Shown here one piece after another: positions 19,516 through 49,670 of a stretch of DNA of 64,000 nucleotides (its first letter is position 1; each line of letters opens with the position of its first letter). The stretch comes from an uncultured Acidobacteriota bacterium (lineage in GTDB: Bacteria > Acidobacteriota > Vicinamibacteria > Vicinamibacterales > 2-12-FULL-66-21). Both the position numbers and the translations under genes were made by a program. The stretch covers positions 280,291-344,290 of the forward strand of contig CAWKBU010000031.1 of the NCBI GenBank assembly GCA_963847975.1, in the 5' to 3' direction. The notes beneath the pieces are model-generated. The model saw nothing but the letters and a program-made list of their open reading frames with translations, ran no database searches and was not told where the DNA came from.

Positions 19516-19530
19516 AGCAACCTCTGGTAA

Positions 19531-19623
19531 GTGGGAAGTCTGACGTTTGAAGTCTGACGTATCTAAGTCTGACGTTTGAAGCGGGAAGTGGAAGTTGGAA
19601 GTTGGAAGTTAAGTCTGAAGTTG
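19531..19623. repeat. GAAGT-word element, copy 3: solo arm (no complementary arm) in a divergent promoter region
   Basis: Sequence GTGGGAAGTCTGACGTTTGAAGTCTGACGTATCTAAGTCTGACGTTTGAAGCGGGAAGTGGAAGTTGGAAGTTGGAAGTTAAGTCTGAAGTTGG. It shares a 23-nt identity with copy 1 and the GAAGCGGGAAGT.GGAAGTTG block with copy 2. Confidence 0.75.
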
Positions 19624-23334: not shown

Positions 23335-23348
23335 AGTGGGTAGTCTGT

Positions 23349-23568
23349 GAAAGTCTGAAGTCTGACGTGGGAAGTCTGAAGTTATGAAGTCTGAACTGTG
23401 AAGTCTCAAGTGGAAGTCTGAAGTTAAGTCGTTGGAAGTGGAAAGTCTGAAGTCGGACGGCCCGAGGAAAGCGGAAAGCTGGAACGTGCCGAACTTCGCA
23501 CTTCAACTTCCAACTTCCCGCTTCTCACTTCCTCACTTCAGACTTCCCACGTCAGACTTCACACTTTC
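23349..23568. repeat. GAAGT-word palindromic element, copy 2
   Basis: The outer 34 nt of the left arm (GAAAGTCTGAAGTCTGACGTGGGAAGTCTGAAGT) pair with the right arm with 1 mismatch; the interior is ~60% complementary GAAGT words. The reverse complement of the right arm matches the copy-1 arm at 44/47 nt. Confidence 0.8.
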
Positions 23569-23581
23569 ATTGGCCATTGCC

Positions 23582-33733: not shown

Positions 33734-34826
33734 ACTTGAAGAGCAGCACGTCGCCGTCCGCGACGACGTATTCCTTGCCCTCCATGCGGTAGACACCGTT
33801 CTCGCGCGCGGCGGCGACCGAGCCGCAGCGCACCAGATCCTCGTAGGATACGGTTTCGGCTTTGATGAAGCCGCGCTCGAAGTCCGAATGGATGACGCCC
33901 GCGGCCTTCGGCGCCGTGTCGCCGGCGTGAATCGTCCACGCCCGTACTTCCTTCTCGCCCGCCGTGAAGTAGGTCTGCAGGCCCAGGAGGTGGTAGGTCG
34001 AGCGAATCAAGGCATCGAGACCGCTTTCCTTGACGCCGAGATCGGCGAGGAATGCCTGGGCTTCGTCGGGCGCCAGGTCAACGAGGTCGCTCTCGATCTG
34101 AGCGCTGATGACGACGGCCTCGCAAGACATGTGGGTCCCGACGTAGTCACGGACCTTGCGGACGAAAGGATTGGCGTCGGCCGTCGCCAGCTCGGAGTCG
34201 AGGACGTTGCAGGCGAAGATCGTCGGCTTGTCGCTCAGGAGGAAGAGAGGCGCGGACAGCGCACGTTCCTCGTCGGTCAGCTCCACCGTGAGCACAGGCT
34301 TGCCGTCGTCGAGTGCGGCCTCGATCTTCTCGAGCACGGCGTCTTCCGCCGCGGCGGTCTTGTCGCCGCGCTTGATGTCCTTGCCCAGGCGCTCGCGGCG
34401 TTTCTTCACCGAGTCGAGGTCGGACAGCATCAGCTCGGTGTTGATGACCTCGATGTCGCTCACCGGATCGACGTGGCCGCCGACGTGATGCACGTCCGCA
34501 TCTTCGAAGCAGCGCACGACCTGGATGATGGCGTCGACTTCGCGGATGTGGGTGAGGAACTTGTTGCCCAGGCCCTCGCCCTGACTCGCTCCCTTCACCA
34601 GTCCGGCAATGTCCACGAACTCAATCGCCGCCGGGATTACGACGCCGGTCTTGGCAATGCGCTGCAGCTCGTACAGCCGCGAGTCGGGCACGGTCACGAT
34701 GCCGACGTTCGGGTCGATGGTGCAGAAGGGGTAGTTCGCCGCCGCGGCGTTGCGGGTTCGCGTGACGGCGTTGAACAACGTGGATTTGCCCACGTTGGGG
34801 AGTCCAACGATTCCAGCTCTGAGCAT
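33723..34826 (-). CDS. ychF: Redox-regulated ribosome-binding ATPase YchF
   Basis: 367 aa: [20 protein letters not shown]…[10 protein letters not shown]…[12 protein letters not shown]…[19 protein letters not shown]. Confidence 0.95.
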
Positions 34827-34942
34827 GTAATGACGATCGCGTTGAGGGTTCTCGGGCGGGCCTGTGAATCAGATCCGATTGCAGCCTCCATTGTACCAGT
34901 CCGGCCATCAGAACCGGGTTTGCGGCGAATATGAGCTTTAAT

Positions 34943-35014
34943 CACCGCATCTGATGCGGCCAATAGCGAAACGGCCGGCGATTGGGTGCTATAATAGCCG
35001 CACATATTGCGGTG
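34943..35014 (+). promoter_or_regulatory. Putative promoter of the fic gene: extended -10 flanked by two copies of a 17-19 bp palindrome
   Basis: TGCTATAAT at 34987-34995 lies in a locally AT-richer stretch. CACCGCATCTGATGCGGCC sits at 34943-34961 and GCCGCACATATTGCGGTG at 34997-35014. Both fit CACCGCA-N5-TGCGGC and they are in inverted orientation. The GTG start is at 35019. Confidence 0.35.
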
Positions 35015-35018
35015 AATA

Positions 35019-36122
35019 GTGCCATATATACATGAGCTTAGCGGCTGGCCTCGGTTCACTTGGGACGCCGACCGCCTGGCTGTGCCGTTGGCCGAGGCCA
35101 GGCACAGGCAGGGACGTCTGGGGGGGCAGATGGAGTCGCTCGGCTTCAAGGTCCGGGAAGAGGCTGTTCTCCGGACACTTACCGACGATGTTCTCAAGAC
35201 GAGCGAGATCGAAGGCGAGAAGCTCGAGCCTGACCAGGTCCGGTCATCTCTCGCTCGTCGTCTCGGCGTGGACATCGGCGGTTTGACGCCGGCCGACCGC
35301 AACGTCGAGGGGGTGGTGGAAATGATGCTCGACGCCACCCAACGCTACGATCAGCCCCTTGCGCAAGAACGGCTCTTTGGCTGGCACGCGGCGCTCTTCC
35401 CAACCGGGCGCAGCGGGATGCACCCGATCAGGGTGGGTGCGTGGCGTGACGACAGGACATCGCCGATGCGCGTCGTCTCCGGCCCGATCGGGCGCGAGCG
35501 CGTGCACTTCGAAGCCCCGGCCGCGGATCGGCTGGACGACGAGATGCGTCAATTCCTCGACTGGTTCAACGGCGACACAGTGGTCGAACCGGTGCTCAAG
35601 GCGGCGGAGGCGCACCTGTGGTTCGTGACGATTCACCCGTTCGACGATGGCAACGGCAGAATCGCACGGGCGATTGCCGACATGGCCCTGGCGCGGTCGG
35701 AGAAGAGCTCGCAGCGGTTCTACAGCATGTCGGCGGAGATCCGCCAGCAACGCAGTGATTACTACCGCATCCTCGAGCAGACACAGCAGGGAACGCTGAA
35801 CATCACGGCGTGGATGGAGTGGTTCCTCGCCTGCCTGACGCGCGCCATCGATGGCGCGCAAACCGCGCTCGGCGGCGTGATCGCCAAGGCGCGCTACTGG
35901 GAAAAGCTGCGCGACGTACCGTTGAACGAACGCCAGCGGCTCGTCATCAACCGGCTTCTCGAGGGCTTCGAGGGTAAGTTGACGACGTCGAAGTGGGCGG
36001 CGCTGACGAAGAGCTCGCAGGACACGGCGCTGAGGGACATCCAGCAGCTCGTGGAGCGGGGCGTCTTGATTCGCAATGCAGCGGGCGGCCGCAGCACCAG
36101 TTACGCGCTCGCGGCGGCCTAG
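35019..36122 (+). CDS. Fic-family protein (DUF4172 N-terminal domain plus Fic domain)
   Basis: 367 aa with the Fic motif HPFDDGNGRIARA and the N-terminus PYIHELSGWPRFTWD, typical of DUF4172-Fic proteins. The start is GTG. Confidence 0.85.
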   Translation: MPYIHELSGWPRFTWDADRLAVPLAEARHRQGRLGGQMESLGFKVREEAVLRTLTDDVLKTSEIEGEKLEPDQVRSSLARRLGVDIGGLTPADRNVEGVVEMMLDATQRYDQPLAQERLFGWHAALFPTGRSGMHPIRVGAWRDDRTSPMRVVSGPIGRERVHFEAPAADRLDDEMRQFLDWFNGDTVVEPVLKAAEAHLWFVTIHPFDDGNGRIARAIADMALARSEKSSQRFYSMSAEIRQQRSDYYRILEQTQQGTLNITAWMEWFLACLTRAIDGAQTALGGVIAKARYWEKLRDVPLNERQRLVINRLLEGFEGKLTTSKWAALTKSSQDTALRDIQQLVERGVLIRNAAGGRSTSYALAAA

Positions 36123-36173
36123 CGCTGGAGAACCAAAAAGGGGTCGGGACCCCCTCTCGGACAGGAGAGCGAC

Positions 36174-36704
36174 ATGCCAAGGGGTCGCCCACTCGAAGTG
36201 GAGCTGGAACTGCTCGAAGCGTTCAAACGCAGCGGGGCCGTGAGTGTGTACCTCGTGACCCGGTTACCGGCCGCCATCTGGCAGGGCGGCACCGCCAGCG
36301 GGCCGCGGCCGCACGATCGCGGCGATCGTGGCGCACATGCAAGGTGTCCGGCGCACGTTTGCGCGGATGGGCGGGGCGCAACCTGGTCCACCCTCGCTCG
36401 ATAGGCGGTCGGTAACACCGACCCAGGCGCAGCGGCCTTTCAGCAGTCGACCGACGACCTCGCACGCCTCTTCGAAGCGGCCATCACCTCAGGTCACGCC
36501 CGGGTCAAGGGGATGCCACGGCGTGTTATCGACATGCTCACCTACCTGATGCAGCACGACGCGCACCACCGCGGCCAGATCTGCACGCTGGCGAACGACC
36601 TCGGCCACTCCTTCAGTGGCGACGACAGGATGCGATTGTGGGGCTGGAAGGCGATGCCGCCGCCAACGGAGCGGACTCAATCAAGAGCATCCAGGGCCCG
36701 ATAG
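36174..36704 (+). pseudogene. DinB-family (DinB_2) metal-dependent protein, frame-disrupted
   Basis: The text passes through ORFs 36174..36404, 36328..36549 and 36513..36704 (…TIAAIVAHMQGVRRTF…, …MLTYLMQHDAHHRGQICTLAN…). Switches lie near 36290 and 36440. Confidence 0.6.
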
Positions 36705-36730
36705 CGCAGGCCCCTGCACGCAGAACAGGA

Positions 36731-38416
36731 TCAGGGAGCCGTTCGGCGCTGCACGACAATGGCGAGCACCAGCGCGAACACCCCGATGAGCGCAGAGTAC
36801 GCAAAGAACACCATGTAGCCAGTGCCAAGTGCGGCCGGGCTGACACCCGATCGAGCGACGGCATTGGCAAAATTCTCCGGCGCCTGTGCCGCCACGACGC
36901 CCTTCAGGCCGGAGAACACCCCGCCCGCATCAGCGAATCGCGCCGCACCCTCGACGATGCGGCCCGACTGCGACGCGATTAGACGGCCGGGAATGGCATA
37001 GAGGGACGAGAAGAGCGCGTATTGGGTGGCGGTGAATCCGGCCGACGTCAGGCTCGACATGTACGCGATCAGGCACGTACCCGCGAAGCCGCCGGCGACG
37101 TTGTCGAGCCCGATCGCGGCAAAGAGCGCCCACAGATTGTGGTGCTGCAGGGCGAGCCAGATGAACAGGAGATTGCTCAACGGCCCTGCGAGCGCTCCAA
37201 TCACCATCGCGCGCAGGAGGCCGTAGCGCGCCACGGCCACGCCGCCCGCGAACACGCCGAACATCGTCATGCCGACGCCGAAGATCTTCCGCACTTCGGC
37301 GATCTCGACCAGGCTGTAGCCAAGGTCGAGATAGAACGGATTCATGATGTTCAGCACGAAGTCCGGGACACGGTAGAGGCAGATCAGCGCGAGGATCAGC
37401 CCTCCCGCCGAGCGGTGACGCGCGAAGAAATCGCGCAACGGATCGGCGAGGGCCGAGGAGAGGTAGACGCCGGGCCGCGTGCGGGCACCGGGAAGCGGAA
37501 GGGCGGCAAGAGCAATCAAGCCGAACCCGACCGCCACGGCGGAGAGATGCACCCACACGCGCGCGGGCGACGCCCAGGCCGATAGAACCGCCTGGCGCGC
37601 GCCGTCAGCACCCGCGGCGCCGAGCACTCCCGCGAGCACGCCGGCATTGGCGGCGAGGCCTGAGCCCAGCACGAGCGCGCCGGCCGCGAGGATCGCGAGG
37701 CGGGCAACCCATTCGATCGCCTCACGTGCCGGAGCGGGTTGAATGTCTCCTGTTTGGATCGGACGGATGGCGTGACGCTGCTCGCGCGGAGCCGCGAGCA
37801 CCGCCAGCACGCCGATCGTCATCAACGCAGCCATCACGGCATAGGAAAAATTCCAGCCGTAGGCCTGGGCGAGGAGCAGCGGGACGGCGCCCGCGACGAT
37901 GATCGCCACGCGGTAGCCCCATTGATACGCGGCCGCCATGGCGCCCTGCTTCGTCGTCTCCGCCGCTTCGATCCGCCAGGCGTCGATGGCGATGTCCTGC
38001 GTGGCCGAGGCCAAGCCGACGAGAACCGCAAAGACCGCGATGGTTCCCAGGCTGCGGGAGGGATCGGAACCCGCCACGAGCCAGAGTCCCAGCATGATGA
38101 GCGCCTGGCAGACGAGCATCCACGAACGGCGATGGCCGAGCCAACCGGTGAGGACCGGTACCCGCGCGCGGTCGACGAACGGCGCCCAGAGGAACTTGAA
38201 GGTCGAGACCAGTGTGACCAGGCTGAAGAAACCGATCACCTCGAGCGAGAGGCCCGAAGCACGGAACCACGCCGAGAGGGTGTCGAAGATCAGGAAGTAG
38301 GGCAGGCCGGCGGAGAATCCCAGCGCGACCATGACCAGCGCCGGGCGCTCGGCGTACACGCCCAGCGCCGAACCGACCGTCCGCTTGCCAGGCGACGGGG
38401 CTGTTTCACTGCTCAT
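36731..38416 (-). CDS. ampG: AmpG-family muropeptide/MFS permease
   Basis: Intact 561-aa polytopic ORF: LGFSAGLPYFLIFDTLSAWFRASGLSLEVIGFFSLV..FKFLWAPFVDR. Confidence 0.75.
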   Translation of the reverse strand: MSSETAPSPGKRTVGSALGVYAERPALVMVALGFSAGLPYFLIFDTLSAWFRASGLSLEVIGFFSLVTLVSTFKFLWAPFVDRARVPVLTGWLGHRRSWMLVCQALIMLGLWLVAGSDPSRSLGTIAVFAVLVGLASATQDIAIDAWRIEAAETTKQGAMAAAYQWGYRVAIIVAGAVPLLLAQAYGWNFSYAVMAALMTIGVLAVLAAPREQRHAIRPIQTGDIQPAPAREAIEWVARLAILAAGALVLGSGLAANAGVLAGVLGAAGADGARQAVLSAWASPARVWVHLSAVAVGFGLIALAALPLPGARTRPGVYLSSALADPLRDFFARHRSAGGLILALICLYRVPDFVLNIMNPFYLDLGYSLVEIAEVRKIFGVGMTMFGVFAGGVAVARYGLLRAMVIGALAGPLSNLLFIWLALQHHNLWALFAAIGLDNVAGGFAGTCLIAYMSSLTSAGFTATQYALFSSLYAIPGRLIASQSGRIVEGAARFADAGGVFSGLKGVVAAQAPENFANAVARSGVSPAALGTGYMVFFAYSALIGVFALVLAIVVQRRTAP

Positions 38417-38452
38417 GCGACGGATTGTGCCTCGGATCGGCCGCCCCGGGCG

Positions 38453-39664
38453 CTACTGCCCGCTCTTCCCGGCAGCAACCGGATAGTCCTTCCACAGCCA
38501 TTCGAGCGCCTGCGGCAGCGTCTGCTGCTTCACCGCGCGATCGCAGTGCCCGGCGTTCTGCGCGAAGACGAACTGATACTTGTAGCCCTTTTCGGCCAGC
38601 ACCTTGGCCATGAGCTGATTGGCGAGCACCCAGTCGTGCATGCCGTCGCTCTCGCTGAAGTTGTCGCGGTCGCTGACGTGCATCCAGAGGCGGATCGGCT
38701 TCACCGGGCTCTTCGGAATCAGGCTGCGGTGAAACTCCCAGGCGCCACCGGGAGACTCGGGGTTGTACGGCCACTGCTGATTCACATACGTGCCCGAGTA
38801 GGTGAGCACGCGATGGTAGAGATCGGTGCGGTACCAGGCCATCGCCAGCGCCGCCGACCCTCCTGAACTGCAGCCCATCGTCGCGCGGGCGTCGGGATCC
38901 TTGGTCAGCCGCACGTTGTACTGCTTCTCGACGAGCGGCAGCACCTCGGTTTCGACAAACTGCGCGTAGAGGCCAGACATCGTGTCGTACTCGAGCCCAC
39001 GCTGGCTTCCTTGCGCATCACCGCTCCCGTTCGCGATGGAGATCGCAATCATCACGGGCACGCGCTTCTGCGCGATCAGATTGTCCAGGGCCGTAAACAG
39101 AAGCTGATCGGGTCCGTCGGCTCCGACGATGAATGGGGCAACCGTGCCGGGCACGTACTGCTGCGGGACATAGACGGCGACACGGCGCGTGTAGGGAGCG
39201 GGACCGCTGCTGACGATGCGTTTGGCGGGATCGGCCGGATCGACCGTCGAGCGGGTGCCTGGCGTGCGCGCGATCCCGGGATAGATCTTGCTCTCGGTCG
39301 ACTCCATGGTGAACGTGTGCACGACGCCGTGGGGTACGTCGTCTTTAACGGTCATCTCGGGAGCTGGAGGATGCGTCGGACCGAGGATGAAGTTTCCGTT
39401 CTTATCGACGGGCGGCACCGCGCCGTCGGGTAACTCCGTCGCGCTTGTCGCGGTGACGTATCCGGGCGTGCGGGGATCGCGAGTGGGCGTCGGTGGCCGG
39501 GGGGCTTGCGTCGCGGGCGGCGCCGCAGGCGGCGGCACACCCTGCGGGACGCCCTGACTTTCGGCGAGCGCCGCACTCGCCACCAAGACCCCGCCAACGA
39601 AGACCGCCACGCGCCATCTGGTGAGGCTCATCATGCCCGCTCCTGTTTCTGCCGGTAGAGACAC
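38453..39664 (-). CDS. Secreted esterase-family protein (putative esterase / esterase D fold)
   Basis: 403 aa with a signal peptide and a Pro-rich linker. The nucleophile region reads ATMGCSSGGSAALAMAW, with conserved text around RRVAVYVPQQY. Confidence 0.7.
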   Translation of the reverse strand: MSLPAETGAGMMSLTRWRVAVFVGGVLVASAALAESQGVPQGVPPPAAPPATQAPRPPTPTRDPRTPGYVTATSATELPDGAVPPVDKNGNFILGPTHPPAPEMTVKDDVPHGVVHTFTMESTESKIYPGIARTPGTRSTVDPADPAKRIVSSGPAPYTRRVAVYVPQQYVPGTVAPFIVGADGPDQLLFTALDNLIAQKRVPVMIAISIANGSGDAQGSQRGLEYDTMSGLYAQFVETEVLPLVEKQYNVRLTKDPDARATMGCSSGGSAALAMAWYRTDLYHRVLTYSGTYVNQQWPYNPESPGGAWEFHRSLIPKSPVKPIRLWMHVSDRDNFSESDGMHDWVLANQLMAKVLAEKGYKYQFVFAQNAGHCDRAVKQQTLPQALEWLWKDYPVAAGKSGQ

Positions 39665-39763
39665 CGTGTTATCGACTCAAGCCAGCCGAATTCTGACCGA
39701 CAACTTCACTTCCGTGCAATCCGGCTATTGTGCGCTGTCGGCTCCCGCAGTACGCTCAACTGT

Positions 39764-40864
39764 ATGTCTAATTGCAGACCCATGCCCCGGCGCTGGTATT
39801 CGTCCCTCGCGGTAACGCTCGGTGCGCTGGCGGTCACCTTCGGTGGCCCGGCGTGCCGGCAAGCGGCGGCGCCCCCGGCCGTCCGGGTATCGGCCGACAC
39901 GTGGGCTGTCGTCGATAGCCATACCATCATGCGCGCGGACGTCGACAAAGCATACCGGCGGGCGCAAGATCCGTCGCAAACGGTGTCCGAAGAGGAAATG
40001 CTGACGGCCAAGCTGAGCCTCCTCAACGACCTCATCACGCAGCAGATCCTGCTCGACAAGGCACAGGCGCTGAAGCTCGAGGTGCCCGCAACCGAGCTCG
40101 ACACCGCCTACGCCAACGCCCGGAAGAACATCACCGACGATGCCTTCAAGCAGGAGCTCACGCGCCGTGGGCTGACGCCGGAGGATATGCGGGAAGGACT
40201 CCGGCGCGAGATGCTGACGCAGAAAGTCATCGAACAGGAGGTCGGGTCGAAGGTCGCGGTCACGGATCAGGACGTCACCGGATTTTTCGAGGCCAACCGC
40301 GCCCAGTTCAACGTGGCGGAGGAGGCCTACCACCTGGCGCAGATCGTGATCACGCCGGTCCGCGAGGCACAGGTAGCCAACCAGGCGGGCGACGATGCAG
40401 CGACGCCTGAGGCTGCCGTGGCGAAGGTGCGGATGCTGATGGAGCGTCTCAAGGCCGGCGGGTCGTTTCGCGATCTCGCGGTCGGCTACTCGGAGGATCC
40501 AGAATCGGCGCCGCGCGGCGGCGACCTTGGCCTGGTGCCGGTGTCGAAGTTGAAGCAGGCCCCGCCGCAACTACGCAATGCGGTGCTCGGGAAGTCGCCA
40601 GGATCGGTGAACGTCGCCAGCGCCGGCGGTGCGTACACGCTCGTCCTGGTCGTCGCTCACGAACAGGCCGGACAACGCGACCTGTCGACGCCTGGAGTCA
40701 AGGACCAGATTACCCAGACGCTTCGCTCGCGCCGGGAGCAACTGCTGCGCGCGGCCTACCTCACGGCCGCACGCACCGACGCCACGGTGGTCAACTACCT
40801 GGCGCGCACCCTGGTCGAATCGAAGGGCGCCGTGCCGAGCCTGCTGCCGACACCGCCGAAGTAG
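39764..40864 (+). CDS. SurA-like periplasmic chaperone / parvulin-type peptidyl-prolyl isomerase
   Basis: ORF 39728..40864. It has a SurA-N-like helical region (KLSLLNDLITQQILLDKA) and a parvulin block (SEDPESAPRGGDLGLV). The start is ATG 39764 or 39782. Confidence 0.7.
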   Translation: MSNCRPMPRRWYSSLAVTLGALAVTFGGPACRQAAAPPAVRVSADTWAVVDSHTIMRADVDKAYRRAQDPSQTVSEEEMLTAKLSLLNDLITQQILLDKAQALKLEVPATELDTAYANARKNITDDAFKQELTRRGLTPEDMREGLRREMLTQKVIEQEVGSKVAVTDQDVTGFFEANRAQFNVAEEAYHLAQIVITPVREAQVANQAGDDAATPEAAVAKVRMLMERLKAGGSFRDLAVGYSEDPESAPRGGDLGLVPVSKLKQAPPQLRNAVLGKSPGSVNVASAGGAYTLVLVVAHEQAGQRDLSTPGVKDQITQTLRSRREQLLRAAYLTAARTDATVVNYLARTLVESKGAVPSLLPTPPK

Positions 40865-40865
40865 T
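40788..40865 (+). repeat. Direct repeat copy A (78 bp): the 3' end plus stop of the SurA-like gene
   Basis: TGGTCAACTACCTGGCGCGCACCCTGGTCGAATCGAAGGGCGCCGTGCCGAGCCTGCTGCCGACACCGCCGAAGTAGT. It is 77/78 identical to 46635-46712. Confidence 0.95.
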
Positions 40866-41056
40866 CACTCGGCCTATGCGTTTTCGGTGCCTGTCGATTC
40901 GCCCCATCGAGTGATTCGGCACGACGCACCGCCTTCTTGGTAGGCCCAGCACTGATCTGACAATTCTCACAATTGGTCGCAGTCCCTCACACCTCGGGCC
41001 GTCCTCCAGGCCAGGCTTAACGCGGACTCGCCGTTAGGCCGATCGAAGGTCGAGAG

Positions 41057-41401
41057 CTACGCGGCTCGCGGTTCGAGCTCGTGCTCGTCTTGCCGCAACC
41101 GGGCCTCGAGCCAGAAAGTCCCGCCGGGAACGAACGCGATCACGAACGCGAGTAGGCTGCGACGCGCGCCCAGGCGGCGCCCCGCGAAGGCGAGCGTCAC
41201 GCAATACCCGAGGAACAGAACGCCGTGGGCCATGCCCACGATTCTGACGGCAACGTCGATGCCGAGTCCGTACTTCAGTGGCATGGCCACGAACAGGAGT
41301 AGCAGGAACGAGATGCCTTCCCAGAAGGCCACGATGCGGAATCGACCGACCGGGGTGGCTGCCGAAGCAGGGACTCCCAGATTCATGTCGGACCTCTCCA
41401 A
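41057..41401 (-). CDS. DUF3817-family small membrane protein
   Basis: 114 aa: FRIVAFWEGISFLLLLFVAMPLKY…VGMAHGVLFLGY. Confidence 0.65.
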   Translation of the reverse strand: MERSDMNLGVPASAATPVGRFRIVAFWEGISFLLLLFVAMPLKYGLGIDVAVRIVGMAHGVLFLGYCVTLAFAGRRLGARRSLLAFVIAFVPGGTFWLEARLRQDEHELEPRAA

Positions 41402-41432
41402 TCTCGACCTGTTGGTCTGCTATCCGTCAGCA

Positions 41433-44301
41433 TCACTTCCTGGCTCCGGCACCCGGCGGCAGGAAATTCTCGAGCACCCAGGTTTCCGTCTGGTATGACT
41501 TGCCGACGACGTACGCCAACTGCTTGCCATCCGGGCTCAACCGAATCTTTCCCAGCTGGCCATCGACGGCGGCGCTCAGGTCGACGTCGAGTTTCCTCGG
41601 TGCGCTCGCCGTTCAGAGGTATCAGCCACAGCTCCCCGCCGCGAGTGGGCGCGGCTGCGCGGCGTGGCGAACTTGCGGACGATGACGGCGTCGCTGGTCG
41701 GCGTCCAGGGCATCGGTATGACATCGAATTCGCCGTCTGACAGCCGGAATATCTCGCGAGATTCGCCGCCATCGACGGCGCGGATCACGACGGACTGGAG
41801 CAAGTCCGCCGGACGCTCGTAGGAAGCGATCCATCGTCCATCAGGGGACACGCTGATGGGTCCCAGATTGCGCCAGGCGCGTCTGGCGCCGGGCTGATCG
41901 TTCGCTGCCTGCCGAGCGTCGTGTCCCATTCGTGAATGGCCCCGTCATTCGGACTGAAAGTAGAGCCGTTTCCCATCAGGCGACCAGAACGGGCCTTGAA
42001 ACGTGAGCGGGATTGGATAGGCGATCGGCGAAACGTCGCCGGTGTTGACATCGACGCGAAAGAGGCCGCAACGCCCCTTCAAGTCGACGGCGGTGAACGC
42101 CAGCGATCGACCGTCAGGCGCCCAGCTCAGTCCCTGGGCCCAGGCCAGCTTCAATGGCGGCAGCTCCCGAAGTTCTCGGTCGTGACGACCGAGTAGATCG
42201 CGATGGTTCCCGCGAGATCGTCTCCAGCGCGCCTGGATACGTAGGCGAGCTGCTGTGCCATCGGGCGACCATGCCGGCTCGAGGTTCGTGCCGGGAACCG
42301 ACTGGGGCGGTCGAGCCGGCGCGCCGACGCGCCTGCCCGAGCTCAAATCGATGCGAGACGAGCTCGATGTCGACTTCGTTCGCTGGCGTCCTGAAATACA
42401 GCGAGCCGGCCTTCGTCATGCCGACGGATCGGACGTTGCCGATACCAGCTTTCAACCGCTCCGGGATGCCAGGCGGCCCACCGGCTCGACACTGGCGCTG
42501 CCCAGAGATCCGTCGTGCCGCTCCTGTTGCTCGCGAACAAGAGATGGCTGCCATCCGGCGACCATCCCATCAACACGTCATTCGCCGCGCTGACGACGGC
42601 TGGAATGCGTTCGCCGCCATCAAGGGCCATCACGAAGATGTCTCGCTGCGACTCCGTGTCGCTTGCAGGGACGTCGAACGCGAAGGCTCGTCCGTCCGGT
42701 GAGAAAAAGGCCGTCGAACCGCGCCAGTCGATGGGTGTCAGGACGCGAAAGGATCCATCCTGCACGGCGACGAGGCCGATCTCGCCAGTTCCGTCGGCAC
42801 GCGACCTCTCAACGAGGATCCGATTGTCCATCGGGCGACCAATCCGCCGGCCGCAGCCGAACGTCGGGATCTGGATGACGCAGACAGCGGGCGCGATGCC
42901 CCGGTGCTTCCGGAGTTCAGCGGCCTGACTCGCAGCTCGCACTGCTGGAACGCGGCGCACCACTCGTAGGCAACCTGTGTCCCGTCCCGCGAAATTGCCG
43001 CGGACCGAGTCCCAGCCCGCCGGTTTCGCTCTGCCGGGTGCCACCGCCGCTGCGCGCCTGAAGCCAGGTCCTGGACGAAGGCACCGCCGACGAGGTAGCG
43101 GCCATCCTCCGAGACACTCGTGGAGCCCCGATTCAGGATCCTCCGCAGCGACAGAATATCGGCAGACGTGGACGCCGGGCCGGCAGGCGGCGCCAGCGTG
43201 ACTTCGGCCGTATCGCCAGAGCGCGAACGACACCGCCACGACGGTCAGCACGACCGCGGCCGTCGTCAGCGCGCGCCGCGCCGTCCATGCGCGCCCGCTG
43301 GCGCCCTGCAGCGCCTGGGCGACGGCGGCGACGTCCTGAAATCGGTCGGCTGGATTGGGCGCCAGGCATCGATCGACGATCCGCGACAGGCGCGCAGGGA
43401 CGTCCGGCCGCAGTTCTCGCACGGCGGCGGCGCTCGCCGGCGGCGTGGGCCTGGCGCAAGTCGTCGATCGTGCGGCCGACGAGCGGGAACGATCCGGTGA
43501 GCAGATGGAACAGCACCACGCCGAGGCTGTAGATGTCGCTCTGCGGCGATGCCGGATGCTTCGCGAGCACTTCCGGCGCCAGATAGAGCGGCGTGCCGGC
43601 GAGGTCGCCGGCCGTGGCCGCACCGAGTTCCGACGCGTCGCTCCCGGCGCCGAAATCCGCGAGCACGATGCGACCATCGGCGGCGCGCATGACGTTCTGC
43701 CGCCTTCACATCGTGGTGCACGACGCCGGCGCGATGCACGGCGTCGAGCGCGGCGCACAAGTCCAGACCGATGCTCGCGACAGTCTGACGGATCGAACGG
43801 GCCTTTCGGCACGAGCTCGTCCTCGAGCGTCGGGCCGTCGATGAGGCTCATCCACACGCCGACCTGGCCGCCGATCCGCTCGGCGCCGTAGACCGTCACG
43901 ACATTCGGATGGCTGACGCGAGCCAGCAGGCGCGCTTCCGCGATGACGGCGGTGGCTTCGGCGGGCTGCTGGCGCCGCAGGATCTTCAGCGCGACCGTCC
44001 GATCGAGCCGAGGGTCGTGTGCCCGATAGACGTCGCCGAAGGTGCCTCGACCGATGTGTTCGAGGACGGTCAAGGGGCCCCATTCGGCCGGCAGGACATC
44101 AAGCGACGGGCTCGCGACACGCTCGGTCGCGTCAGTGGGTGGCGCCGCTGTGAACGCGCGCCACCTGCTCGAGAACCCGCAGCTCGTCGACGAGCGCCGG
44201 GTCCGTCGATGCAGGCGAGCTTCCGCCCGAGCGCGGTCCCAATCGACGGCCGCGCGATCGGCAATCGCTCGCGCGACGTCAGCGCGCCAGTCGTCGCTCA
44301 T
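41433..44301 (-). pseudogene. Ser/Thr protein kinase - TM - TolB-like (PD40/WD40-like) beta-propeller sensor, heavily frame-disrupted
   Basis: Kinase text is spread over three frames (LEHIGRGTFGDVYRAHD…ALKIL; VHRAGVVHHDVKA; IVLADFGAGS…GTPLYLAPEV…SDIYSLGVVLFHLLTG). A TM segment (ALTTAAVVLTVVAVSFALW) follows. PD40-like repeats (FSPDGRAFAF, WSPDGSHLLF, WAPDGRSLAF, WSPDGKRLYF, VSPDGRWIAS, LSPDGKQLAY) lie in at least 5 more ORF fragments down to the TGA at 41433. Confidence 0.7.
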
Positions 44302-44893
44302 TCTTCATCGCCTCCGCGAGCCGGACCAGCGCGCGCGAGACGGCCATGCGCGCGGCGTTGGCCGTGGGTCGTCCTGTCGCCTCGGCCACGTCCGCGTAGC
44401 TGAGATCCAGCTCCAGCCGCGCCACGACGAGCTCGCGATCGTCCTCGGACAGCCGTGCGAGCGCGGCATCGTAGCGTTCGATCGCTTCCGCGCCGATCGC
44501 CGCCTCGAGCGGCGACTGGTTCGAATCAGCCAGCTCCGGATCCAGTTCCGTGGCGGCCGGCCGGCGGCCCGCGCGCTTCAGCTCGTTCCGGATGCGGTTG
44601 AGGATCGACTGGCGCAGATACGCCTGCAGCGCGCCATGGCCGCGATGTTCGAATCCGTCGACATGTTTGAACGTCTCGAGCAGCGTGTCCTGCACGAGAT
44701 CCTGCGTGTCGGCGAGATCCCGCGCCCACGCCGGCAGGCGCCCGCGCGCCCAGCGACGGAGGCTGGGCAGGTATCGCGCGAACAGCTCGTCGAGGGCGGA
44801 CCTGTCGCCTTCGCGCGCCCTGGTGAGCAGGGTCAGCGTCGAGGGCCAGGCCGGTTGCGGTGCAGCCACGTGAGCCGATTCTACCGCCGGCAT
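44279..44893 (-). CDS. ECF-type sigma-70 family RNA polymerase sigma factor
   Basis: Intact 204 aa. Region 2 reads DLVQDTLLETFKHVDGFE…GALQAYLRQSILNRIRNELKR. Region 4 reads LSEDDRELVVARLELDLSYADVAEATGRPTANAARMAVSRALVRL. Its 3' end overlaps the kinase start by 23 nt. Confidence 0.85.
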   Translation of the reverse strand: MPAVESAHVAAPQPAWPSTLTLLTRAREGDRSALDELFARYLPSLRRWARGRLPAWARDLADTQDLVQDTLLETFKHVDGFEHRGHGALQAYLRQSILNRIRNELKRAGRRPAATELDPELADSNQSPLEAAIGAEAIERYDAALARLSEDDRELVVARLELDLSYADVAEATGRPTANAARMAVSRALVRLAEAMKNERRLAR

Positions 44894-44928
44894 GTGCGGT
44901 TTCGGTCCGGCGGTTGTTTCACTCGTTC

Positions 44929-46626
44929 ATGAAGCTCGTGCCCCGTCTGGCGTTCCTGCTGCCGATCTGGCTACTCGTGCACGCCCAGGCCATGCAGCCT
45001 CACCGGTCAGGCGCCGGTCACCGCTCTCCTTCGGGGTCCCGATCGAGCGGGCCGTGCGTTCGGGTGAGGTTCACGAATACGGATTCACGGTCGGTGCCGG
45101 TGATTTGATTTCCGGCACACTCACCTTGCCCGGATTGGCTGCGCTTGTCGAAGTCGTCGGCAACACCGGCCAGATCATTCGGACGACCTATCGTTTCGAA
45201 GACGACGAGCGATCCGCAGCGTCTGGGATTCGTCGCACCTGCGGCTGGCGTCTATCGTCTGCGGATCAAGGCGTTCGATCGCTTTGACGGTGGTGGCCAA
45301 ATCACTCCGGGGGAACCCGTGCCGGTCACCGGAACGGCGGCCGGCCGCTACACACTCCGGCTGGAAACGGCGTCGGTCTCGGCTCGCATGCAGGGCCCGG
45401 AGCCGCCCGTTCGAGAGGACTATTCGAGCCCGCGTTTGAAGCGACTGGCCGAGGACGTCAAAGCAGGGCGCGCCGATGCGGTGCAGGCGTTCTGGCACGA
45501 GGTCGCCGGCAAAGGGCCCCTGGTGGAGGACATCGCCGGCAACGATCGCGATGCTGACGTGACGTTTCTCTGGCGTGAAACCTACGACACTCGAAACGTC
45601 CGGTTGATGGGGGCCCCATATGGAGACTACATGTCGCACTTGTCCGGGACGGATGTCTGGTACAAGACTGTGCGGCTGCGCCGGGGGACGCGTTTGTCAT
45701 ACGGCATCTCACCGAACGATCGACCGGCGACCCGGTGGGCGACGGCACAACTCGATCCGCTGAACCCGCGCAAGTTTCCTGACGATCCGACCTATCGATT
45801 TATCAGCCAATCGGTGCTTGACATGCCCGGTGCTCCCGACGAGCAGTGGGCGATGCGGACGCCGGTTCGACGCGGTCACATCGAGGAGCGGACGGTCAAA
45901 TCGGCGCTGCTCAAGAATCCGGTGTTCAGGACGACCGGCCGATCTGGATCTACACGCCGCCGGGCTACGACCCAACTGCGGGTCCGTATCCGTTGCTCGT
46001 GCTCCTGGACGGAGCCGCGTATGTCAGCAATCGGTTTCGGCAACGCGCCGGCGACGCTCGACAACCTCATCAACGATGGGCGGATCCGGCCCGCCATCGT
46101 TCTCTTCGATCCCGGCAATCGCCCCGGAGGACCTGCGGGCCACGCCGGCTACGGCGAAGCGCTCGTCCGGGAGCTCATGCCGATGCTGCGCGCGTCCTAT
46201 CCCATCAGCACGAACCCGGCCGACACGGTGATTGGGGGCTACAGCGCCGGAGGAACCGCCGCTGCCCAGATTGCGCTGTTACATTCGGACGTGTTCGGCA
46301 ACGTGCTGTCACAGTCCGGCGCGTTTCGCGGCCGGGACCCGGGCGACGAGGAACCGAACGCCACGGCGCGGAAGTACCTCGCAGCGCCGCGCCAGCCGAT
46401 CCGTTTCTATCTCGAAACCGGACTCTACGACAACGTGCCTGGTGCCGACCTCCCGCTGTACAAAATGGTGCTCGACGAAACCAACCTGATGGGCAACCGC
46501 CATCTCCGCGACGTCCTTCGCGCGAAGGGTTACGACGTCACCTATCGCGAGGTCGGCGGCAACCATGACTATGTCCACTGGCGTGCGATGCTCGCCGACG
46601 GGCTGATGACGCTGCTGAAGCGATGA
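44929..46626 (+). pseudogene. Secreted enterochelin-esterase-like hydrolase with an N-terminal beta-sandwich domain, frame-disrupted
   Basis: The signal MKLVPRLAFLLPIWLLVHAQA lies in the 44860 frame. The text continues in the 44892 frame (FGVPIERAVRSGEVHEYGFTV…) and then the 45145 frame. A short excursion into the 45846 frame reads PIWIYTPPGYDPTAGPYPLLVLLDGAAYVS. The GGYSAGG nucleophile is present. There are about 4 switches. Confidence 0.6.
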
Positions 46627-46634
46627 GTCAGCGC

Positions 46635-46712
46635 TGGTCAACTACCTGGCGCGCAACCTGGTCGAATCGAAGGGCGCCGTGCCGAGCCTGCTGCCGACAC
46701 CGCCGAAGTAGT
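46635..46712 (+). repeat. Direct repeat copy B (78 bp), non-coding duplicate of the SurA-like 3' end
   Basis: It differs from copy A only at one base (GCGCAACC versus GCGCACCC). It starts 9 nt after the stop of the esterase pseudogene. Confidence 0.95.
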
Positions 46713-46736: not shown

Positions 46737-47735
46737 TCAGCGGACTTTCACACGCGCCAGGTAGATCGCGGTCTTGCCCTCGTGCGAGGCGTAATAACTC
46801 ATCCAGAGCAGACCGTCGTGCCACACCATCCCGGGATAGCTGGTATCGCCGCCTGATGGCAGCGTGAGCGCGGGCTCGTAGCGGCCGTCGAGAGTCAGTC
46901 GTCCGACGGCCGTCTTCGGACCGTCGGAAGAGCTGCGCCCGGACGCCCACAGCTCACCGTCAGGCAGTCGGATGAAATTCGGACCGCCGATCGGCTGCTG
47001 CGTCTCGCGCCACGTCCAGGTCGTGTAGGGTGCACGGCTGCGCCCCATCCAGGCGAAGCGATTGCCGGCCTCGCGCCGCACCAGTGCCAACATCTCCCCG
47101 TCCGGCATGACCCGCAGCGTCGTCTCGTTCGGCCGGCCGGGGACCGCGAAGGTCGTCACCTCATCGAACGCCCGTCCGTCTTTCGACGACATCAGCGTCG
47201 CCGTCCATTCGGCCGCGTCGCCTGCTGCCGCCTTGTATGTCACACCGTACGCCCGGCCTTCGTGCCAGGTGACCCGCCACAGCCAGTCGCCTTCGGCAAG
47301 AATGCGCTGCGGGCCACTCCAGGTGCTGCCGTCCGATGAGAACATCACCCGCGGCTGTCGGCCCACGTAGCGCTTGCCTTCGTAGACCGAACCGCCAGCC
47401 ACCATCATCAAGCCGCCGTCCGGTGTAATCGAGAGCTTGGGATCGCGCAGGTCGATGCCGGCCTCAGCGACGAGCGCGGTCGACGTCCAGGTCTCGCCAT
47501 CGGCAGAGCTCAGCACGCGGATGCGGCCATTGCCACCGACATGGTCGTCGCCCTCCCGGAACGTGCAATACCACCGGTTGCGCCAGCGGATCAGGTCGGT
47601 GAAAGCATTGTGGGCCCCGCCGTCCCAGATACGCGTCACGCTGACGAGCGTTGGCGCCGGTTGTGCGGCGTTCGCAGCCGCGAGGAGTATCAGCATCACG
47701 CTTAGCATCCGCATACTGTTCAGGCCGTCAGTCAC
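46737..47735 (-). CDS. Secreted sialidase-superfamily (BNR/Asp-box) beta-propeller protein
   Basis: 332 aa with a signal peptide (MRMLSVMLILLAAANA) and Asp-boxes SSADGETWTS, SSDGSTWSG and SSKDGRAFDE. Confidence 0.7.
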   Translation of the reverse strand: MTDGLNSMRMLSVMLILLAAANAAQPAPTLVSVTRIWDGGAHNAFTDLIRWRNRWYCTFREGDDHVGGNGRIRVLSSADGETWTSTALVAEAGIDLRDPKLSITPDGGLMMVAGGSVYEGKRYVGRQPRVMFSSDGSTWSGPQRILAEGDWLWRVTWHEGRAYGVTYKAAAGDAAEWTATLMSSKDGRAFDEVTTFAVPGRPNETTLRVMPDGEMLALVRREAGNRFAWMGRSRAPYTTWTWRETQQPIGGPNFIRLPDGELWASGRSSSDGPKTAVGRLTLDGRYEPALTLPSGGDTSYPGMVWHDGLLWMSYYASHEGKTAIYLARVKVR

Positions 47736-47841
47736 CTTGGCTATCGATCAGCTTTCAGCGTACTCGAAAGGCCAGCGGCCGGCACAGGTTGCGCTTAGCG
47801 GGCGCAGGATTTGCAACCGAACACGAAAGAGGACAACAAAG

Positions 47842-48318
47842 ATGACGCCAAAGAACACCATCTGCCTGTGGTTCGACAAAGATGCCCACGAGGCGGCGCG
47901 CTTCTACGCCGCCACCTTTCCGGATAGCAAAGTGACCGCTGTTCACGAGGCGCCCAGTGACTACCCAAGCGGTAAGAAGGGCGATGTGCTGACGGTAGAG
48001 TTCACCGTCCTGGGCACTCCCTGTCTCGGCCTCAACGGCGGCCCGACCTTCAAGCACAGCGAGGCCTTCTCCTTCCAGATCGCGACCGACGATCAGGAAG
48101 AGACGGACCGCTACTGGAACGCGATCGTCGGCAATGGCGGTAAGGAAAGCGAGTGCGGTTGGTGCAAGGACCGCTGGGGCCTCTCCTGGCAGATCACCCC
48201 GCGCACGCTAACCGAGGCGCTTGCGGCTGGTGGCGGTGAGGCAAAGCGTGCCTTCGAGGCGATGATGCAGATGAAGAAGATCGACGTCGCCACCATCGAG
48301 GCGGCCCGGCGGGGCTGA
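47842..48318 (+). CDS. VOC-superfamily protein (PhnB / 3-demethylubiquinone methyltransferase-like domain)
   Basis: ATG 47842 inside ORF 47437..48318: ICLWFDKDAHEAARFYAATFPDS…CGWCKDRWGLSWQI. Confidence 0.8.
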   Translation: MTPKNTICLWFDKDAHEAARFYAATFPDSKVTAVHEAPSDYPSGKKGDVLTVEFTVLGTPCLGLNGGPTFKHSEAFSFQIATDDQEETDRYWNAIVGNGGKESECGWCKDRWGLSWQITPRTLTEALAAGGGEAKRAFEAMMQMKKIDVATIEAARRG

Positions 48319-48335: not shown

Positions 48336-49670
48336 TCAGGCGGCATCTAGCCCGAGTCTCTTCTGCATCTCCTCGAGAGGCACGCCTTTCGTCTCGGGCA
48401 CCATCAGCGCCACCCACAGCAGCTGGATCGCCATCATCACCGTAAAGAAGAGGAACACCAGCCCAGGGGCGAACGCGGTCACCATAATCGGGAAGAACGT
48501 CGTCAGCAGCGCCGCGAAGATCCAGTGCGTGAAGCTGCCAAGAGCCTGCCCCTCGGCGCGATAGCGGGTCGGGAAGATCTCGGAGATGAGCACCCAGATC
48601 ACCGCGCCCTGCCCGACCGCATGGGCGGCGATGAAGGCGAAGATACAAGCCGGGACGATCGCGTAGTGCCCGGTGAAGAACGCCCAGGAGGTCAGGCCGA
48701 GCGAGGCGATGTAACCGAACGAGCCGATCTGAAGCAGCGTGCGCCGGCCGAGCCGATCGATCAACCACAGCCCGACGAACGTGAAGATCAGGTTCGTGAC
48801 GCCGATGCCGATCGACTGCAGCAGCGCGGCCTGGGCGCCGAGCCCAGCCATCTCGAAGATACGCGGCGCAAAATACAGCACGGCATTGATACCCGAGAGC
48901 TGGTTGAAGAACGCCACGAGGAAGGCGAGCAGTATCGGCACCCGGAGCCGGCGCGTCCAGAACTTCGCCGCCACCTCCCGGTCGCTGGCCGAAGCTCGAA
49001 TCACGTTCGCGGTCAGCCTCGATCTCGGCCGTGGACGCCTCCGGGCTCGATCCGGCGCAGCACCTGCGACGCCGGAGGCGCGGTCGCCCTTCCGCGCAAT
49101 CAGCCAGCGAGGACTCTCGGGAATGGCAAAGCAAAGGACGGTGTAAATCAGCGCGGGGACCGCCTCCACGCCGAGCATCCAGCGCCAGGCGTGCTCGCCG
49201 ATGCCCGCGAGCAGAGCGTTCGACACGAACGCGGCGAGGATGCCGAACACGATATTGAACTGGAACAGGCCCGCGAGCCGGCCGCGCCATGCCGGCGGCG
49301 CGATCTCCGCGATGTAGAGCGGCGCCGCGACCGTTGACATGCCGACGCCGAGTCCGCCGATGAAGCGCGCGACGATGAAGGTATAGACGCCCGTGGCGAG
49401 GCCCGACCAGACGGCCGAAACGAAATACAAGATGCCGATCCAGACAAGGGTTGGGCGCCGTCCGAGCCGGTCGGTCGGCCAGCCGCCAACGAGTGAGCCG
49501 AGCACGGTGCCGTAAAGCGCCGAGGCCATCGCCACGCCGTGCATCGTCGGGCTGAGCGACCACAACGCCTGAATCGTCTGCTCGGCGCCGGAGATGACGA
49601 CGGTATCGAACCCGAACAGAAAACCCGCGAGCGCGGAGGTGATCGACCAGAAGAAGATGCTGCGTTTCAT
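48336..49670 (-). CDS. Sugar-porter-family MFS transporter
   Basis: 444 aa with FGFDTVVISGA, GWPTDRLGRR, PESPRWL and PETKG signature blocks. Confidence 0.85.
   Translation of the reverse strand: MKRSIFFWSITSALAGFLFGFDTVVISGAEQTIQALWSLSPTMHGVAMASALYGTVLGSLVGGWPTDRLGRRPTLVWIGILYFVSAVWSGLATGVYTFIVARFIGGLGVGMSTVAAPLYIAEIAPPAWRGRLAGLFQFNIVFGILAAFVSNALLAGIGEHAWRWMLGVEAVPALIYTVLCFAIPESPRWLIARKGDRASGVAGAAPDRARRRPRPRSRLTANVIRASASDREVAAKFWTRRLRVPILLAFLVAFFNQLSGINAVLYFAPRIFEMAGLGAQAALLQSIGIGVTNLIFTFVGLWLIDRLGRRTLLQIGSFGYIASLGLTSWAFFTGHYAIVPACIFAFIAAHAVGQGAVIWVLISEIFPTRYRAEGQALGSFTHWIFAALLTTFFPIMVTAFAPGLVFLFFTVMMAIQLLWVALMVPETKGVPLEEMQKRLGLDAA

Follow-up and report, generated by a model that had tools for sequence, protein, structure and literature searches.

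A 78-bp direct repeat of the 3′ end of a SurA-like chaperone gene brackets a four-gene block in this DNA, and the structure looks like an ordinary recombination scar between alternative versions of the chromosome rather than a dead mobile element. The reading that we prefer, with a probability a little above even (roughly 0.55), is that integrase-independent recombination in a variable slot combined two alternative cassettes into a stack, with displacement of the former SurA 3′ end. The evidence comes from the anatomy of the repeat in the window (the whole 64-kb stretch that was analyzed), from the states of the locus in relatives and from the phylogeny of the neighboring gene.

A repeat search of the window matched positions 40788–40865 to 46635–46712 at 77 of 78 nucleotides, and a wider alignment (40785–40865 against 46632–46712) agreed at 79 of 81. 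As the 64 kb contain no other long direct repeat that is near-perfect, the match is far beyond chance, and the preliminary description of a 78-bp repeat of the SurA-like 3′ end is upheld. Copy 1, on the plus strand, consists of the functional last 25 codons of the SurA-like gene, its TAG stop and 1 nt. Copy 2, also on the plus strand, is a displaced, non-coding SurA 3′ end; SurA itself is intact, while this orphaned fragment sits downstream of the block. Copy 2 starts 8 nt past the TGA of the last block gene (46624–46626) and out of frame with it. The 8-nt spacer (46627–46634) ends at a novel, putatively illegitimate joint with SurA codon −25. This joint, GATGAGTCAGCGC followed by TGGTCAAC, is identical in the window and in the related locus L022. 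An uninformative microhomology of no more than 2 nt (CG) is possible across the joint, where GTCAGCGC adjoins TGGTCAAC. All cassette types diverge at the right end of the repeat, after TAG plus 1 nt, as expected if copy 2 is the anchor-gene end of an empty-type allele.

The left anchor is the SurA-like periplasmic chaperone/PPIase gene (39728–40864, plus strand; Pfam SurA_N_3, SurA_N and Rotamase_3), which is found in every related locus and has 3729 homologues at E ≤ 1e-30. It is followed by a 191-bp non-coding flank (40866–41056), for which an Rfam search gave no match. The block proper begins with a gene for a small DUF3817 membrane protein (41057–41401, minus strand; PF12823, E = 3.8e-23), continues with a Hanks-type Ser/Thr kinase carrying a C-terminal PD40/Tricorn-like β-propeller (41433–44301, minus strand; Pfam Pkinase and PD40) and an ECF-type sigma factor (44279–44893, minus strand; Sigma70_r2 and Sigma70_r4_2), and ends with an enterochelin-esterase-like hydrolase (44930–46626, start approximate, plus strand; Enterochelin_N and Esterase domains). 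Pfam thus confirms the gene content given earlier for the block. The sigma factor is intact, with 204 amino acids as in L022; its gene and the kinase gene share a strand, with the sigma gene directly upstream and an overlap of 23 nt in these ORF calls, and the two are presumably co-transcribed. The kinase orthologue in L022 is intact (906 amino acids; Pkinase, Tricorn_N and PD40) and diverges from that of the window by 8–12%. Beyond copy 2 lie a BNR_2-like (sialidase-fold) gene (46737–47735, minus strand; weak Pfam BNR_2) and a 3-demethylubiquinone-9 3-methyltransferase-like (3dmu) gene (approximately 47840–48318, the latter being the ORF end; plus strand), which are the first and second genes of a BNR-3dmu cassette. 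The PF06983 assignment of the latter is taken from its orthologues in L022 and L023, and the gene is absent from L025 and L029. The right anchor is an ORF for a Sugar_tr/MFS transporter (48336–49670, minus strand), orthologues of which directly follow the variable cassettes in L022–L025 and L029.

The close relatives of this locus, independent Vicinamibacterales assemblies at 92–98% nucleotide identity, occur in two states. L022 and L026 are occupied, meaning that the block is present, and L023, L024 and L027 are empty, with SurA leading directly into the BNR-like gene and exactly one repeat copy. The empty site that had been predicted, in which the SurA-like gene is followed by the sequence from 46713 onward, therefore exists in L023, L024 and the JGI contig L027; the block, if once mobile, had also been called a fixed remnant, but the state is not fixed, since it segregates among genomes that are 94–98% identical. 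The window and L022 share a composite allele in which the DUF3817-kinase-sigma-esterase block, the 78-bp SurA tail and the BNR-3dmu cassette follow one another. The empty-type locus L024 contains a DUF3817-derived patch of ~80 nt inside its BNR gene, on the same strand. As there are 11 one-base deletions in 104 nt, this patch may be a mixed-strain consensus artifact. If it is real, the L024 ancestor had the block, which would favor deletion as the usual way in which empty alleles arise and speak against our preferred reading.

More distant relatives show parts of the block as native neighbors of SurA. In L025, the kinase-sigma-esterase module lies between SurA and MFS with no copy 2, and its divergence is proportional to that of its surroundings (90.7% identity to the window in the block versus 89–92% in the flanks). 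In L029, DUF3817 (94.4% nucleotide identity) is the sole gene between SurA and MFS, again with no repeat, and in L032 and L033 the slot has other contents. The best reading is that the SurA-MFS interval is a variable slot for alternative chromosomal cassettes in this Vicinamibacterales species group. We considered and rejected the idea that the block cargo is foreign to the locus, as its modules adjoin SurA without repeats in L025 and L029 and its composition is native. Block-bearing alleles that lack BNR were found only in the partial forms of L025 and L029, and the exact block-bearing parent, with DUF3817 and kinase-sigma-esterase leading directly into MFS, was not found among the loci compared. 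At the SurA-MFS locus, the BNR-3dmu cassette is restricted to the close cluster, where it invariably follows a SurA tail; elsewhere, BNR homologues at 75–84% identity occupy other genomic contexts, those of the orthologues at 80–84% being unrelated.

The sequences that follow the two repeat copies also differ in their distribution. Locus types A, D, E and F all have homologous sequence in place of the flank after copy 1, which by this criterion is ancestral. Its stretch 40887–41035 is missing from L022 and L026, whereas L032 keeps part of it and matches 40954–41001 at 92%. The flank after copy 2, which is that of empty-type alleles, occurs only in the close cluster. The esterase stop is followed by other sequence in L025 than in the window and L022. 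Copy 2 itself matches the allele type of the close cluster and has no 3-nt insertion like that of L025, which makes the duplication younger than the split from L025, L029, L032 and L033. The copies 2 of the window and L022 differ at 4 of 78 positions, counted on the tail alignment, so copy 2 is probably evolving neutrally.

Compared with the intact L022 orthologues, ~24 insertions of 1 bp are specific to the window in the interval 41607–46038, versus 0–5 in each 4–5 kb flank, in agreement with the earlier observation that two block genes are the most heavily broken. The kinase gene is split by ~20 1-bp insertions and the esterase gene is also frameshifted, with intact 563-amino-acid orthologues in L022 and L025. 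These frameshifts are probably consensus errors. The window-specific substitutions fall on the three codon positions in the ratio 26:23:60, and with this third-position bias kept, the broken genes are no sign of age.

Could the second repeat copy, or the placement of the whole block, be a misassembly of mixed strains? Most relatives, like the source itself, appear to be metagenome assemblies, samples may contain occupied and empty strains together, and the window has its excess of 1-bp insertions within the block. Nevertheless, L022, assembled from an independent sample, has both copies, the same novel joint and intact genes, and the JGI metagenome contigs L026 and L027, which we take to be short-read assemblies, reproduce the left occupied junction and the empty junction, respectively. 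Judged by these independent sequences, the repeat structure is not an assembly artifact, and we consider misassembly scarcely credible. The preliminary description proposed the remnant of an integrative mobile element, which a site-specific recombinase would have placed in an attB within the SurA 3′ end and whose integrase would have been lost afterward. Such an origin would account for direct repeats made of a gene 3′ end and for single-copy empty sites, a classic pattern of elements such as e14 at icd, and for a state that is polymorphic among close relatives. However, this origin is quite improbable. As had been reported, the block has no integrase, recombinase or excisionase by Pfam on all of its genes, and no tRNA was found in the 64-kb window; nor was there an integrase, excisionase or tRNA within 10 kb on either side of the annotated orthologous locus L022, and no integrase lay next to SurA in any of 20 more distant genomes (0/20). 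Neither the esterase nor the repeat motif has relatives in IMG/VR. The cargo consists of ordinary regulatory and hydrolase genes, and the composition of the block is native: block GC is 66.7% versus a window mean of 66.4%, and tetranucleotide usage is typical, with 18 of 48 control segments at least as deviant. The non-coding start of ~190 bp does have lower GC, as described (60.7% versus the same 66.4%), but at the 8th percentile of 191-bp windows it is unremarkable. Moreover, the copy-1 flank is the ancestral SurA flank, and the modules adjoin SurA in L025 and L029 without repeats and with divergence proportional to the flanks. With no recombinase, a native composition and modules native to the vicinity of SurA, the data do not support site-specific insertion of a once-mobile element that is now a remnant.

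If no integrase was involved, was the block gained or lost? With orthologues from other contexts as the root, the BNR gene tree had the topology (L027_B,(L024_B,(L022_A,(win_A,L023_B)))), where A marks occupied and B empty alleles, with bootstrap values of 191, 164 and 200 of 200. The empty alleles L027 and L024 are basal and the occupied alleles derived, and the empty L023 is sister to the window (200/200). BNR diversity reaches 8.3% among empty alleles versus 3.9% among occupied alleles, only two of which include BNR. Since empty alleles are basal in the rooted tree, an empty-type allele probably received the block from incoming DNA, which would have brought its own SurA 3′ end. Rampant recombination means that a single-gene tree beside an indel may not record the history of the indel. 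In the 3′ part of SurA, the window is closest to the empty L023 (97.4%) and L022 is closest to the empty L027 (98.6%), and the SurA tail alleles are mosaic. A tail variant, TGCA, is common to the empty L023 and L027 and absent from both copies of the occupied alleles.

From these comparisons we infer a recombination mechanism, its single origin and its direction. The composite allele would have arisen once, between block-bearing and BNR-bearing alleles of closely related strains. One crossover would have been homologous, inside a conserved anchor gene. The other would have been illegitimate and would have fused SurA codon −25 to the DNA that lies 8 nt beyond the esterase stop, and the whole process would amount to homology-facilitated illegitimate recombination. 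The SurA gene that was brought in or retained would keep a complete 3′ end (copy 1), and the end of the other allele would be stranded as copy 2. Later, the two 78-bp copies would permit precise deletion of the RecA type, which is the likely origin of the empty state of L023, and flanking homology would permit allelic exchange, with both states segregating. An integrase-mediated or Campbell-type event would give the same final structure, a point that weighs against our preference.

Two other routes to the composite allele would also do without an integrase. The duplication may have come first: with the block and BNR-3dmu already adjacent, a templated patch of ~80 bp would have copied the SurA tail into the esterase-BNR spacer, and all empty alleles would be RecA-dependent deletions between the two copies. 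The block modules and copy-1 flank are ancestral at the locus, the duplication is young and the empty L023 nests with the occupied window (200/200), all of which suit this scenario. A length of 78 bp should be above the minimum for homologous recombination and suffice for homologous deletion. The L024 patch would be a comparable same-strand copy of ~80 nt, from DUF3817 into BNR, although it could also be the fossil of a lost block and may be a mixed-strain consensus artifact. We nevertheless find this order of events doubtful. The patch of SurA tail would have to end by coincidence exactly 1 nt past the SurA stop, where all cassettes diverge; no allele with both cassettes but without copy 2 was found; in the BNR tree, the empty L027 and L024 take basal positions and show more diversity; and the TGCA variant of L023 and L027 is missing from both occupied copies. 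It is also conceivable, but unlikely, that a circularized SurA tail plus DUF3817-kinase-sigma-esterase from a related strain entered an empty-type chromosome by a single RecA crossover in the shared tail, in the manner of Campbell. Such an event predicts two direct copies bracketing the block and empty sites with one copy, needs no integrase (none was found) and fits the basal position of empty alleles, but a single crossover within 78 bp of homology would be inefficient, there is no sign of a circular intermediate or of replication or transfer functions, and the sequence outcome expected is also that of the recombination that we favor.

Integrative elements such as e14 or phage 21, at icd in E. 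coli, insert into the 3′ end of a protein-coding gene and bring a substitute for it. As there, a repeat of the target-gene 3′ end brackets the insert here, and the empty site keeps one copy. In contrast to e14, the SurA locus has no recombinase, phage or conjugation genes and no atypical composition, and the "inserted" genes are native neighbors of the target gene in outgroups. The locus also resembles substrates of RecA-dependent deletion, with 78-bp direct repeats 5.8 kb apart, a deletion-type allele that keeps exactly one copy and, in L023, at least one empty allele nested among occupied ones. However, deletion is not the sole process, given that the duplication seems to be younger than the oldest empty alleles. 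For the cargo, the parallel is with ECF43-like pairs of ECF sigma factor and Hanks-type Ser/Thr kinase (PMC7826278; PMC13147305): compared by domains and gene order, the sigma gene here too lies just upstream of a kinase gene, which it overlaps and which encodes a predicted sensor propeller, although this pairing concerns the block cargo and not the repeat.

[quoted passage not shown] As at those loci, an anchor gene gains downstream DNA with a replacement 3′ end, the old end is stranded as an orphan, no integrase is present and a single species contains alleles that have the added module and others that lack it. The differences are that the anchor here is a housekeeping chaperone gene and not a polymorphic toxin, that the 3′ ends are near-identical (77/78) and not functionally different, and that the cassettes are regulatory or metabolic, with one stacking step seen and a mechanism that is inferred. 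A tentative and bolder idea is that the SurA-MFS interval is an integrase-free "cassette stack," to which modules would be added by 3′-end displacement and from which they would be removed via stranded anchor fragments. This process might act together with templated patch insertions of ~80 nt, and the L024 DUF3817 patch would then be a second case of such an insertion. If the idea is true, a mechanism described so far for Rhs and T6SS toxin loci would also operate on ordinary genes of regulation and metabolism in soil Acidobacteriota.

The 78-bp direct repeat is as the preliminary description had it: 40788–40865 and 46635–46712 match at 77 of 78 positions (79 of 81 when extended leftward to 40785 and 46632), and copy 1 is the 3′ end of the SurA-like gene, comprising its final 25 codons, the stop and one base. 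A repeat search found no other near-perfect long direct repeat in the 64-kb window. Downstream of the SurA-like gene (39728–40864, plus strand; Pfam SurA_N_3 and Rotamase domains), Pfam identifies genes for DUF3817 (41057–41401, minus strand), a Hanks-type Ser/Thr kinase with a PD40 propeller (41433–44301, minus strand), an ECF sigma factor (44279–44893, minus strand) and an enterochelin-esterase-like protein (about 44930–46626, plus strand). Copy 2 begins 8 nt past the esterase TGA and is non-coding and out of frame with the esterase. Exact-protein look-ups with the window DUF3817 and ECF sigma sequences gave no match, and Rfam and promoter/terminator scans of the region returned nothing above chance. 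The SurA gene region has a PF00756 "putative esterase" paralogue on either side: the upstream one (38453–39664) is on the minus strand and the one in the block (44930–46626) on the plus strand; of the two, only the block copy has an Enterochelin_N domain.

SurA homologues place the window in the Vicinamibacterales (Acidobacteriota), among relatives that are metagenome-assembled genomes. A SurA scan of the genome collection yielded 21 loci at 49–80% amino-acid identity. Downstream of SurA these loci are not syntenic with the window, which made them unusable as an empty-site test; they did reveal that synteny generally breaks at the 3′ boundary of SurA. Closer relatives were gathered by protein search, contig look-ups and a DNA-pattern scan of JGI metagenomes. 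At the nucleotide level these are about 95–98% (loci L022 and L023), 92–93% (L024) and 88–92% (L025 and L029) identical to the window. In the window, L022 and the JGI contig L026 (type A), SurA is followed by the DUF3817–kinase–sigma–esterase block, the SurA tail, a cassette of a BNR_2-like gene and a PF06983 3-demethylubiquinone-9 3-methyltransferase-like gene (BNR-3dmu), and an MFS transporter gene. The empty site that had been predicted exists as type B (L023, L024 and the JGI contig L027), in which SurA, BNR-3dmu and MFS follow one another with exactly one repeat copy and window-like flanks on both sides. Type C (L025) has SurA, kinase–sigma–esterase and MFS, and lacks DUF3817, copy 2 and BNR-3dmu; type D (L029) has SurA, DUF3817 and MFS; types E and F (L032 and L033) share the SurA 3′ flank and then continue into other DNA. 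The novel joint of type A, GATGAGTCAGCGC abutting TGGTCAAC, is identical in the window and L022, from which we infer a single origin for this arrangement.

Could the repeat and block structure have arisen in assembly, as the preliminary description allowed for the second copy? L022, which comes from a different sample, has the type A structure with intact genes, and both the occupied and the empty junctions recur in JGI metagenome contigs. Assembly error is therefore excluded.

The preliminary description interpreted the block as an old site-specific insertion, now a fixed remnant. The repeat and the empty site are indeed as integrase-mediated insertion of the block would leave them, but no expected feature beyond these two was found. 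As was stated there, the window contains no tRNA and the block no recombinase; By Pfam and annotation, integrase and excisionase genes are absent both from the block and from the 10 kb on each side of the orthologous locus. In 20 distant genomes an integrase never adjoins SurA, and the gene after SurA is nearly always different. Scans of IMG/VR recovered no relatives of either the esterase or the repeat motif. The suggested comparison of composition with the flanks found the block typical, with 66.7% GC vs 66.4% for the window and a tetranucleotide distance of 0.0128 vs 0.0125 ± 0.0022 for controls (18 of 48 controls at least as deviant). The block modules keep their place, order and orientation in the repeat-less outgroups L025 and L029, and the block is 90.7% identical to L025, equal to the identity of the flanks. 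These observations are evidence against a mobile element and for native chromosomal DNA that is not a fixed remnant but segregates as a presence/absence polymorphism. The observation is thus confirmed and its interpretation supported in part: an empty-type allele probably did receive a replacement 3′ end with incoming DNA, whereas integrase-driven entry of a foreign block is not upheld, and the stacking process requires no integrase.

The non-coding flank behind copy 1 is homologous across types A, D, E and F. Within it, 149 bp (40887–41035; no Rfam match) are absent from L022 and L026. We considered a window-specific insertion and rejected it, since L032 keeps part of this stretch at 92% identity, which argues instead for deletion in L022 and L026. 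Together, the shared homology and the partial retention in L032 indicate that the flank after copy 1 is the ancestral SurA flank. The flank behind copy 2, which is that of type B, occurs only in the close cluster, and BNR orthologues at 80–84% identity lie in unrelated genomic contexts. A 57-amino-acid ORF after SurA in L032, vaguely resembling an integrase arm domain, was dropped, as it has no Pfam match and no homologues.

When did the duplication arise? Copy 2 carries the SurA tail allele of the close cluster, without the 3-nt insertion and substitutions of L025, so that the duplication postdates the separation from L025, L029, L032 and L033. On its right side the repeat ends one base past the stop, at the point where all cassette types diverge, as would be expected if copy 2 is the anchor gene end from a type B allele. 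The BNR gene tree, rooted with L030 and L031 (orthologues from other contexts), is (L027_B,(L024_B,(L022_A,(window_A,L023_B)))), with bootstrap values of 191, 164 and 200 out of 200, and BNR diversity reaches 8.3% among type B alleles vs 3.9% among type A. From tree and diversity, the SurA tail–BNR adjacency of type B appears older than composite type A, and the empty state of L023 looks like a secondary loss. In its 3′ part, SurA of the window is nearest to type B L023 (97.4%) and that of L022 to type B L027 (98.6%), with only 94.0% between window and L022, and a mosaic pattern is seen for the tail variants GACA, CACG and TGCA. These affinities across types point to frequent recombination, making single-gene trees an imperfect record of indel history. 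L024, an empty-type genome, carries inside its BNR gene (11113–11191, corresponding to 46892/46897 of the window) about 80 nt that copy the DUF3817 3′ end (41073–41160 of the window) on the same strand, with TCGAG microhomology at the left edge. This patch could be what is left of a lost block, the product of templated repair or an artefact of a mixed-strain consensus; with its 11 one-base deletions in 104 nt, it no longer serves as firm evidence that the empty alleles arose by deletion.

The preliminary description called two of the four block genes the most heavily broken in the window. Comparison with L022 and L025 gives about 24 insertions specific to the window; these lie between 41607 and 46038, mainly in the kinase and esterase genes, and nearly all are of 1 bp, mostly C or G and outside homopolymers. 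Window-specific deletions number just two, and flanks of 4–5 kb have 0–5 such insertions. Window-specific substitutions in the kinase fall 26:23:60 by codon position (33:21:82 in the intact lineage L022), and this third-position bias, not expected of long-standing pseudogenes, together with indels that are almost all +1, led us to reject old pseudogenization. The indel-rich zone coincides with one (41500–45500, the kinase and part of its neighbors) in which window and L022 diverge by 8–12% vs 1–4% in the flanks. Over this zone the distances among window, L022 and L025 are roughly equal, a sign that the block may contain deep allelic lineages or alleles of imported origin. The insertions probably reflect errors of the consensus in a region that varies among strains, or very recent damage at most, and do not speak for an old remnant.

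Other sites in the window vary as well. A second slot (36122–36735) spans exactly the interval between the stop codons of two convergent genes, Fic/DUF4172 and MFS. In the window and in L022 it contains a DinB-like gene; in L023 it is just 28 bp long; L024 has about 1.1 kb there, with a TrkA-type K+ channel gene, and L025 has other DNA. Neither a 3′-end duplication nor a flanking direct repeat occurs at this slot. The segment with YchF, Fic, DinB and MFS genes (33708–38472) is missing between the DAO-like gene and esterase-1 in locus L028 and ahead of SurA in locus L018, so that the upstream side of SurA is indel-rich too. An AT-richer periodic repeat family, with units like GAAGTCTGAAGT, occurs at 9349–9606, 19529–19602 and 23341–23569 and makes long inverted-repeat arms; those at 9356–9433 and 9529–9606 (78 nt each, 95 nt apart) are 96% complementary. 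Possible identities are a structured intergenic repeat and a miniature element.

How might type A have formed? Types B, C and D can be regarded as alternative cassettes between the SurA and MFS anchors, and type A as a stack of two, separated by a piece of the left anchor. Most simply, as we infer from sequence comparison, type A would have formed in a single recombination event involving two alleles from closely related strains, in which one crossover was homologous and the other an illegitimate joint from 8 nt past the esterase stop to SurA codon −25, that is, homology-facilitated illegitimate recombination. Campbell-type integration of a circularized fragment would give the same sequence outcome. 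Another possibility is a short templated duplication followed by deletions, but its end point would have to be coincidental and it requires an intermediate allele that was not observed. Following the allelic recombination, the 78-bp copies could mediate precise deletion and flanking homology would permit allelic exchange, which would explain why occupied and empty states are both seen in each of two sublineages.

The locus offers a clean natural case of accessory blocks gained and lost without mobile-element machinery in uncultured soil Acidobacteriota. It cautions that a direct repeat of a gene 3′ end with a matching empty site is insufficient for calling an integrative element, and that frameshift clusters in a metagenome-assembled genome can signal strain-variable regions, not pseudogenes. 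Beyond these cautions, it is an ordinary structural polymorphism and a fresh instance of an already known kind of event. Displacement of C termini or 3′ ends at Rhs and T6SS loci and homology-facilitated illegitimate recombination have been described (PMC5361080, PMC2935791, PMC3240628), and the stacking at the SurA tail follows the same pattern as the displacement at Rhs and T6SS loci.
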